A stretch of DNA of 64,000 nt, taken from contig JARDVH010000133.1 in assembly GCA_030324005.1 (NCBI GenBank), forward strand, positions 42,275,810-42,339,809. The letters run 5' to 3'. This document shows positions 8,813 through 9,110 of this stretch, one piece after another. The DNA is from Negaprion brevirostris (taxonomy: Eukaryota). A program made the position numbers and the translations under genes. How positions within the stretch are numbered: the stretch's first letter is position 1; each line of letters begins with the position of its first letter. The notes below the pieces were generated by a model that was not told the origin of the DNA, searched no databases, and saw only the letters and a program-made list of their open reading frames with translations.

Positions 8813-9110
8813 TCGCTTCTCGGCCTTTTGGCTAAGATCTAGTATCGACATGCTGTGCTTGGTTGAAGTCATTAGGTTACATTTCAGCTTCATTTGAAGC
8901 AAATTTTTAAAAGCGGCATCTCAGCCTTTTGACTAATATGCAAATAAGATCAAGCCTTGGAGGAGGAGCTATGCCTACTCCAATCAGCTTGGATCATGTA
9001 GATCAAGGCCAAGACAGGAGGTGAGAGCCCTGTCTTGTCAGCTTGGATGAGGAATGTCTCAATTTGTTGAGACTGTGAATTGGACTTGATTGGACTGAAT
9101 TGGAATAAAA
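8813..9110 (+). mobile_element. U2 snRNA-headed element (U2 5' fragment plus structured body)
   Basis: 8813-8839 equals U2 nt 2-28 exactly (tcgcttctcggccttttggctaagatc); 8840-8846 equals U2 nt 34-40; a second degenerate U2 5' copy lies at 8916-8954. It is not a full U2 gene. Confidence 0.7.

Follow-up and report, generated by a model that had tools for sequence, protein, structure and literature searches.

The window, by which we mean the whole 64,000-nucleotide stretch of Negaprion brevirostris DNA analysed here, contains a 298-bp element at positions 8813..9110. The evidence supports its assignment as one copy of a dispersed SINE-like family of this shark, lying outside a U2 locus. We call this family U2-SINE, its sister family is designated family B, and the Tx1-clade partner LINE of the same genome is referred to as the Tx1 LINE. 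The copy opens with a U2 head (8813..8846, plus strand), which covers U2 nt 2-40 minus U2 29-33, a 5-nt deletion, when set against the U2 genes of the genome and the consensus of 30 copies. The exact match to U2 nt 2-28 at 8813-8839 that the initial annotation had reported was reproduced against the U2 genes of the same genome (27/27), as was TAGTATC, corresponding to U2 34-40, at 8840-8846. The jump from U2 28 to 34 is present in this copy, as described, but is not a family trait, for the consensus carries U2 1-40 intact (40/40). Among the fetched loci, the head deletion (8839-8840) is common only to L149:4751-4770, a copy joined to U2 39-109.

Behind the head lies a fold-back arm (8850..8878, plus strand), predicted from fold energies to pair with U2 nt 11-39 over the branch-point recognition sequence, followed by a small hairpin and a U-rich run (8887..8909, plus strand; T5 in the consensus) delineated by the Rfam alignment and the fold. 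The U-rich run falls at the position of the Sm site in the Rfam U2 alignment, a putative U2 homology only. A second U2 piece, nt 4-27 (8916..8939, plus strand), matches at 23 of 24 positions in the consensus and at 20 of 24 in the window copy, and is a relic of an older head. Then come two hairpin modules: module 1 (8947..8995, plus strand), which begins with U2 24-31 and which shuffles mark as a duplicate of module 2, and module 2 itself (9000..9049, plus strand), the homologue of family B's only module, with a 3' arm that aligns with U2 44-61. A further hairpin (9056..9073, plus strand) corresponds to U2 nt ~68-85, presumably stem IIb, by alignment and by a shuffle test against U2 41-191. 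The last segment (9074..9111, plus strand) is a short reiterated stretch aligned with U2 ~86-100 that stops before the Sm site, followed by AATAAA and a decayed A-tail. The other landmarks of the initial annotation were also found in place: the second U2 piece with its 20/24 identity, taagatcaag at 8945-8954, the direct repeat tcagcttggat at 8984 and 9038, the hairpins at 9010-9037 and 9056-9073, and the repeated tail ending in aataaaa. The copy has no target-site duplication, the best flank duplication being 6 nt, in agreement with what had been noted before.

The host context is an exon of ARVCF (10418..10609, minus strand); among the matches listed, it is identical to that of shark (100%) and close to those of skates (98%) and chimaera (97%), with bony fish at 88% or below. 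The window copy lies on the strand opposite to ARVCF, 1.3 kb 3' of this exon, and probably within an intron. A second exon of this delta-catenin family gene, recognised by translation alone, is found at 15869-15997 on the minus strand. The Rfam U2 model matched 8812-9006 with 38.8 bits (E 3.6e-6), under its gathering score of 46, and a scan of the whole window at gathering score gave no match and no ribozyme family. An assembly gap lies 185 nt from the copy.

A search of the shark's own genome returned 3,591 first-look candidates, and all 40 that were scored matched over nearly their full length; apart from the window copy, the remaining 39 are 90-93% identical. At the 30 loci fetched, the similar region extends from U2 nt 1-10 to an A-rich tail, and the flanks are unrelated. 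The consensus built from them is ~306 nt long, and its junction between head and body is fixed at U2 nt 40 in 30/30 aligned copies. An exact 19-mer spanning this junction, which includes a CpG, had 176 matches, and one from the 3' body had 1,584, whereas the controls had none; the body is therefore not single-copy. Since the body 19-mer is exact in 5/17, 7/22 or 21/50 of the copies found by other routes, these 1,584 matches would correspond to roughly 4,000-5,000 copies, a count inflated slightly by duplications across 100-N assembly gaps (L079, L217/L218) that mimic tandem copies. Twelve of the first 30 body matches are continuous from nt 17 or an earlier position, and in six more the head lies beyond a gap or break; the remainder are 5'-truncated or end at gaps. 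Dispersed copies occur by the thousand, with U2 1-40 as the consensus head, which bears out the initial proposal of a non-autonomous, U2-headed, multi-copy retroelement outside a U2 locus.

The 62 distinct copies whose flanks are clean are on average 93% identical to the consensus. Target-site duplications (score at least 9) accompany 5 of these 62, against 0 of 600 mismatched flank pairs, so a minority of copies carry them. The 400-nt flanks of 30 copies have no target repeat in common at the junction. Extra U2 stands in front of U2-SINE at L002, L091 and L204, and the second head occupies consensus 109-132. Near-identical words occur in sequencing runs of nine organisms (shares 0.17-0.52), and contigs from four other runs, from four of these organisms, cover 8945-9111 and end at its tail, which speaks for presence, not transcription. 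That U2-SINE is a genuine family we regard as practically certain.

The order of parts in U2-SINE is U2 1-40, a 68-nt unit, U2 4-27, modules 1 and 2, and a U2-like 3' end made of a stem IIb-like hairpin, reiterated U2 ~86-100 and the A-tail. Three derivations of the 68-nt unit (consensus 41-108) were not significant against shuffles: as decayed U2 41-110 (964/2000 shuffles as high), as a copy of the hairpin modules (1152/2000) and as an inverted DNA copy of U2 1-40 (565/5000). The alignment of module 1 with module 2 was reached by 0/2000 shuffles and, on this sequence evidence, the first is a duplicate of the second. Direct comparison of the 3' part with U2 was weak but significant, with 20/2000 shuffles as high for the consensus and 7/2000 for window 9000-9110 against U2 41-191.

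A clearer route to U2 is provided by family B, a ~225-nt U2 derivative (L233-L262, e.g. L254:1468-1695) that was found by searching with the different 5' part of an element at the U2 site. The search gave 6,262 first-look candidates, of which 40 were scored and 30 fetched, and these are ~91% identical to their own consensus. Its plan is U2 1-34, U2 24-31 again, a hairpin replacing the branch-point arm, and a decayed but colinear U2 44-170 in which stems III/IV and the Sm site persist. The alignment to U2 44-170 scored 141 against 56 +/- 9 for shuffles (0/2000 as high), and the Rfam U2 model matched 5 of 7 typical loci with 28-41 bits. Consensus 193-294 of U2-SINE is 77% identical to family B. 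One locus (L277; G000:C106:67786274 region, minus strand) carries the family B changes downstream and retains a U2-like branch-point arm; as far as alignments can tell, it is an intermediate copy that links U2 to family B, and the 3' third of U2-SINE descends from U2 by way of family B. The earlier view that the element captured the U2 5' end as a head is correct (40/40), but the contribution of U2 is wider than that, as the 3' body is U2-derived too.

The partner of U2-SINE is, with high confidence, the Tx1 LINE. It encodes Pfam Exo_endo_phos (an APE-type endonuclease), RVT_1 and a weak zf-RVT, with a ZCCHC3-type RNA-binding domain in ORF1, and one of its relatives is a protein named transposon TX1; all the copies read are broken by stops or assembly gaps. 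In a reverse transcriptase tree of 31 rows (the shark sequence and 30 of at least 120 listed matches), the shark protein clusters with amphibian elements and with unnamed ones (98/95) and falls outside the clade formed by fugu BAD04856 and zebrafish BAC82621, which we take to be Keno. A U2 match (score at least 30) was present before 23 of 28 LINE 5' ends, those left of 30 loci after two at contig ends were dropped, in comparison with 0 of 23 control stretches. These heads end at U2 nt 34-60, and two to four of them are stacked at L153, L155, L160 and L172. At 4 of 23 LINE 3' ends a U2-SINE head begins no more than 16 nt past the tail, and a decayed fifth lies at 19 nt; given ~5,000 copies in 2.7 Gb, we estimate that chance would produce such adjacency at ~1e-4 per locus or less.

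The body of U2-SINE gave no BLAST match beyond the U2 head to the LINE 5' UTR or to its 3' 1.6 kb, and the two share no 3' tail beyond AATAAA and the A-run. On this evidence U2-SINE is not an internally deleted Keno. A Utopia derivative, which the initial annotation had also considered, is not supported either, since the partner has an APE whereas Utopia has a restriction-like endonuclease. Inspection by eye showed a short stem look-alike at the 5' end of the LINE, which was left uncounted. At L152, L154 and L176 the LINE 5' and 3' UTRs lie within ~350 nt of each other, at the first two across an assembly gap; these may be short LINE derivatives that carry U2 heads and arose by internal deletion.

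The two elements also meet at a common point in U2. The pattern of an A-run joined to U2 nt 39 had 26 matches against 2 in the control; 24 of these loci were examined, and the two further matches sit in L106, which was read separately. Directly upstream of U2 39 stood U2-SINE or its tail at four of the 24 (L268, L285, L284, L266), family B at two (L263, L281) and LINE tails at five (L264, L269, L275 and, by eye, L267 and L270). Seven of the 24 had unrelated sequence there, and the others a variant of U2, the edge of a gap or the head of a LINE. The Tx1 LINE is joined to the U2 target TCTGTTCTTATCAG at L096/L264, L106, L269 and L275. These letters are those given as the 3' target of Keno in the target description of PMC6136364, and PMC4640811 likewise has the target begin at U2 nt 39. 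The link to the Keno insertion site drawn in the initial annotation is therefore upheld, since the Tx1 LINE and U2-SINE both join U2 at nt 39.

Several loci display these junctions in combination. L101/L268 contains a whole U2-SINE and then U2 39-109, and L275 has LINE, U2 39-52 and U2-SINE in succession. Contig C9130 (L091) carries a U2-SINE 3' half with its A-tail, a 5'-truncated LINE with its A-tail, U2 43-186, a spacer, U2 1-39 and a U2-SINE head, at which the contig ends; the spacer is the same as that in a tandem U2-variant array. In L002, L204 and L275, a piece of U2 that stops at nt 52 stands before U2-SINE, as expected from a 14-bp duplication of U2 39-52, and short U2 39-52 pieces occur behind A-tails at dispersed sites. 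On-target copies are rare, because none of 70 sampled U2-SINE copies and none of the 23 best-scoring LINE 3' ends runs into U2; the LINE is thus not strictly U2-specific. The tandem array (L036-L038; G000:C157:37354999-37356174) has a 492-bp period and consists of a U2 variant 84% identical to canonical U2, and units related to it at C9130, C54127, C99, C11487 and C84 carry LINE/SINE insertions at nt 35-39.

We then considered U2 promoters. L048 and L228 share conserved upstream DNA with the canonical U2 gene (L031). At about -62 of U2, where the proximal sequence element lies, a 22-nt element had 5 matches with at most 2 mismatches (control, 2), and 3 of the 5 precede U2 starts. One of these is L228/L287, at which U2 1-40 runs straight into U2-SINE 41-54 before being cut by a LINE fragment; the locus is decayed. 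At L164 and L232, U2-array sequence is followed by U2 1-35 and the LINE 5' end. A complete U2-SINE behind an intact promoter was found neither among the 5 matches of U2 upstream DNA (a search that missed L048) nor among 15 U2-array spacer matches and 5 promoter-element matches, all in a gap-rich assembly where many copies abut gaps. Taken together, U2-SINE is built largely of U2 pieces and shares its U2 insertion site with the Tx1 LINE, and copies within U2 genes are likely transcribed from the U2 promoter.

Two sets of U2 loci encountered in these searches deserve mention. Many dispersed full-length U2 copies (L039-L058) share ~40 nt of the 3' flank of the gene, which suggests that they are retrocopies of a 3'-extended U2 precursor. 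L032, L033 and L034 are intact U2 genes that share only ~81% identity with canonical U2 and have an additional A close to nt 30; they are located on two small contigs and beside a gap, and are possibly foreign DNA in the assembly, such as that of a parasite.

The heads could also have arisen if the reverse transcriptase switched templates onto free U2 snRNA, in which case copies would rely on flanking promoters and the nt-39 copies would be incidental. Kojima argues for template switching in crocodilian SINEU in the relevant part of PMC4494074, and template jumps are evident in the shark as well, both in the LINE tails directly followed by a U2-SINE head (4/23) and at L091, where a U2-SINE tail is followed by a truncated LINE; the variable length of the LINE heads (nt 34 to 60) also fits. 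However, U2-SINE has a single fixed junction at nt 40 in every aligned copy. Moreover, U2 upstream DNA stands in front of the heads at L228, L091 and L164, which switching onto an RNA template cannot supply, and the dispersed U2 39-52 pieces behind A-tails suggest that the sources lay within U2 genes. We consider this explanation unlikely.

An RNA polymerase III promoter within the element itself, with U2 18-28 as an A-box-like and the invariant start of the modules as a B-box-like sequence, appears improbable. A loose A-box pattern does occur at consensus 123 and loose B-box patterns at 141 and 194, and the outer helix of the modules is invariant in sequence. Such box patterns are short and degenerate, though. 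In addition, T4-T5 runs at consensus 15-18, 97-101 and 120-123 would stop polymerase III early, an oligo-T argument made likewise for SINEU in the corresponding section of PMC4494074.

Covariation was assessed in 33 natural modules (11 of module 1, 11 of module 2 and 11 of family B; 30 distinct), in which 92.8% of cells pair, in comparison with 29-49% in slid controls. Five of the 10 inner pairs changed on both sides in a compensatory manner, whereas the outer helix had no two-sided change. As the 33 modules represent three consensus lineages and not 30 independent cases, this amounts to ~5 independent compensatory events. The predicted fold-back joins consensus nt 44-72 to U2 11-39 by 25 pairs, 9 of them G-U, and 717 of its 742 cells are paired across 30 copies. 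None of 1000 body shuffles was as stable as the consensus fold-back, in contrast to 110/1000 for the opposite strand; for the window copy, whose arm is partly broken by the head deletion, the number was 47/1000. Folded whole, the window copy was no better than shuffles (z -1.2), while a sister copy, L017, reached z -2.75. No compensatory changes were present in the fold-back arm among copies. All 9 stem changes there are G-U compatible (P 0.006), a post hoc value because the pairing register came from the fold. For LINE heads, L153 had strong fold-back energy but head-body pair counts not above shuffles, and L150 was not significant. From these models, selection may have favoured masking of the branch-point arm of U2 by the fold-back.

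Another alternative is that the copies are not selfish but retrocopies of a functional, shark-specific variant snRNA that resembles family B in having an Sm site and stems III/IV. At the 5 of 7 typical loci family B scores against the U2 model as a whole, and it keeps an Sm-like site and has a hairpin maintained by compensatory change. We nevertheless hold this to be very improbable: U2-SINE has stacked heads and does not reach the Sm site, the 5 promoter-element matches include no family B gene with a promoter, and family B copies, too, join U2 nt 39. A single truncated U2 pseudogene beside unrelated sequence, or an assembly artefact, can be set aside almost entirely, for despite the nearby gap and the lack of a target duplication there are thousands of colinear copies with sharp common ends and unrelated flanks, and the contigs of the four other runs stop at the same tail.

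We return to the reading based on U2 genes, in which U2-SINE likely borrows the enzymes of the LINE and the promoter of U2, because a few copies sit at the partner's U2 base. Mobilisation of U2-SINE by the Tx1 LINE would proceed as follows. The endonuclease and reverse transcriptase of the LINE would copy A-tailed U2-SINE RNA, and insertion at U2 nt 38/39 would leave U2 1-38 ahead of the element, extended as far as nt 52-58 where target was duplicated, so that RNA polymerase II starting from U2 +1 would make U2-headed element RNA. Every passage through a U2 gene could add one head. Owing to loose targeting, most copies would land elsewhere without a promoter and be dead, as is the dispersed window copy. 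The fold-back over U2 11-39 and the loss of the Sm site would prevent the RNA from acting as a false U2. In its full form, this amounts to a U2 ecosystem in the shark: a U2 copy decayed through an intermediate into family B and then U2-SINE, and promoterless SINEs renew their promoter by homing into U2 with a Keno-like LINE, gaining a head per pass, with the arm folded away by selection. We give this full scheme a probability of about 50%.

Short elements headed by U2 are known from crocodilians, where the SINEU-1, -2 and -3 families, found in that group only and proposed to be mobilised by the Keno-related Tx1-Mar, were described with their transcription left open (Kojima 2015; the SINEU sections of PMC4494074); the relevant passage of PMC5786205 still treated the mechanism as undemonstrated in 2018. 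For chondrichthyans, the SINE passage of PMC5499810 mentions tRNA-headed families and not snRNA, and we found no U2-headed SINE of sharks or cartilaginous fishes in the open literature, a search covering neither subscription journals and Repbase Reports nor Repbase and Dfam. U2-SINE works like SINEU and fits that class by its features, and is assigned to no named family. It has the U2 head, a short, non-coding, multi-copy unit, a poly(A) tail, target-site duplications at some copies, snRNA pieces added repeatedly at the 5' end and a Tx1-clade partner with a shared target preference; its host, however, is a shark and not a crocodilian. According to the description of SINEU-1 in PMC4494074, that family resembles U2-SINE in being under 500 bp, with a U2 head, heads stacked at the 5' end, partial duplications, an A-tail, duplications of ~10 bp in some copies, oligo-T inside the element, no tail in common with a LINE and a Tx1-type partner bearing the same U2 head. 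It prefers Mariner-N4_AMi, whereas U2-SINE prefers U2 nt 39 itself, and U2-SINE further differs in its shark host, in a 3' body traceable to U2 and in having copies in U2 gene context.

Keno, as characterised in parts of PMC4494074, PMC4640811 and PMC6136364, is like the Tx1 LINE in its APE, RT and zf-RVT domains and in the U2 letters joined, and U2-SINE sits at the same site; unlike Keno, U2-SINE encodes nothing and its body has no match to the LINE, and unlike the U2-specific Keno, the Tx1 LINE is mostly off-target and takes its U2 head to new sites. Utopia uses the same U2 site, and the 20-bp duplications of reptile Utopia in the account of PMC4640811, which also gives its restriction-like endonuclease in place of an APE, resemble the LINE heads ending at nt 56-58. 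R2 in 28S rRNA genes, as discussed in PMC4494074, is co-transcribed from the promoter of its target gene, as is likewise proposed for U2-SINE; R2 excises itself by a ribozyme, whereas U2-SINE has no Rfam ribozyme match and keeps the host 5' piece. Source copies placed in U2 genes by a U2-targeting LINE would offer a testable answer to the transcription question left by the SINEU paper, and the series from U2 to SINE is visible within one genome, together with a predicted way to neutralise a borrowed branch-point arm. If the ecosystem reading is true, it would provide a concrete transcription mechanism for snRNA-headed SINEs, with a second origin far from crocodilians, and a parallel, for a polymerase II RNA, to the path from 7SL to Alu. 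With several thousand copies at ~7% divergence, and presence in the data of several organisms, the family should make useful phylogenetic markers for sharks.

Family B has its own counterpart in SINEU-3, which in the outline given in PMC4494074 has a similar plan, starting with U2 1-34, continuing with a long piece from the middle of U2 and closing with a divergent end of ~40 nt; SINEU-3 deletes ~50 nt, where family B replaces the branch-point arm by a hairpin. U2-SINE departs from that outline of SINEU-3 in lacking the Sm site and stems III/IV and in having two extra 5' units. Another U2/family B intermediate, L278, consists of a U2-like unit and then a family B module, and a further subfamily (L233, L234, L235, L237) has a U2 1-31 head and ~130 nt of GC-richer sequence before the B module. 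A U6 snRNA fragment (26 bits) lies at L255:2388-2448, near two family B copies.
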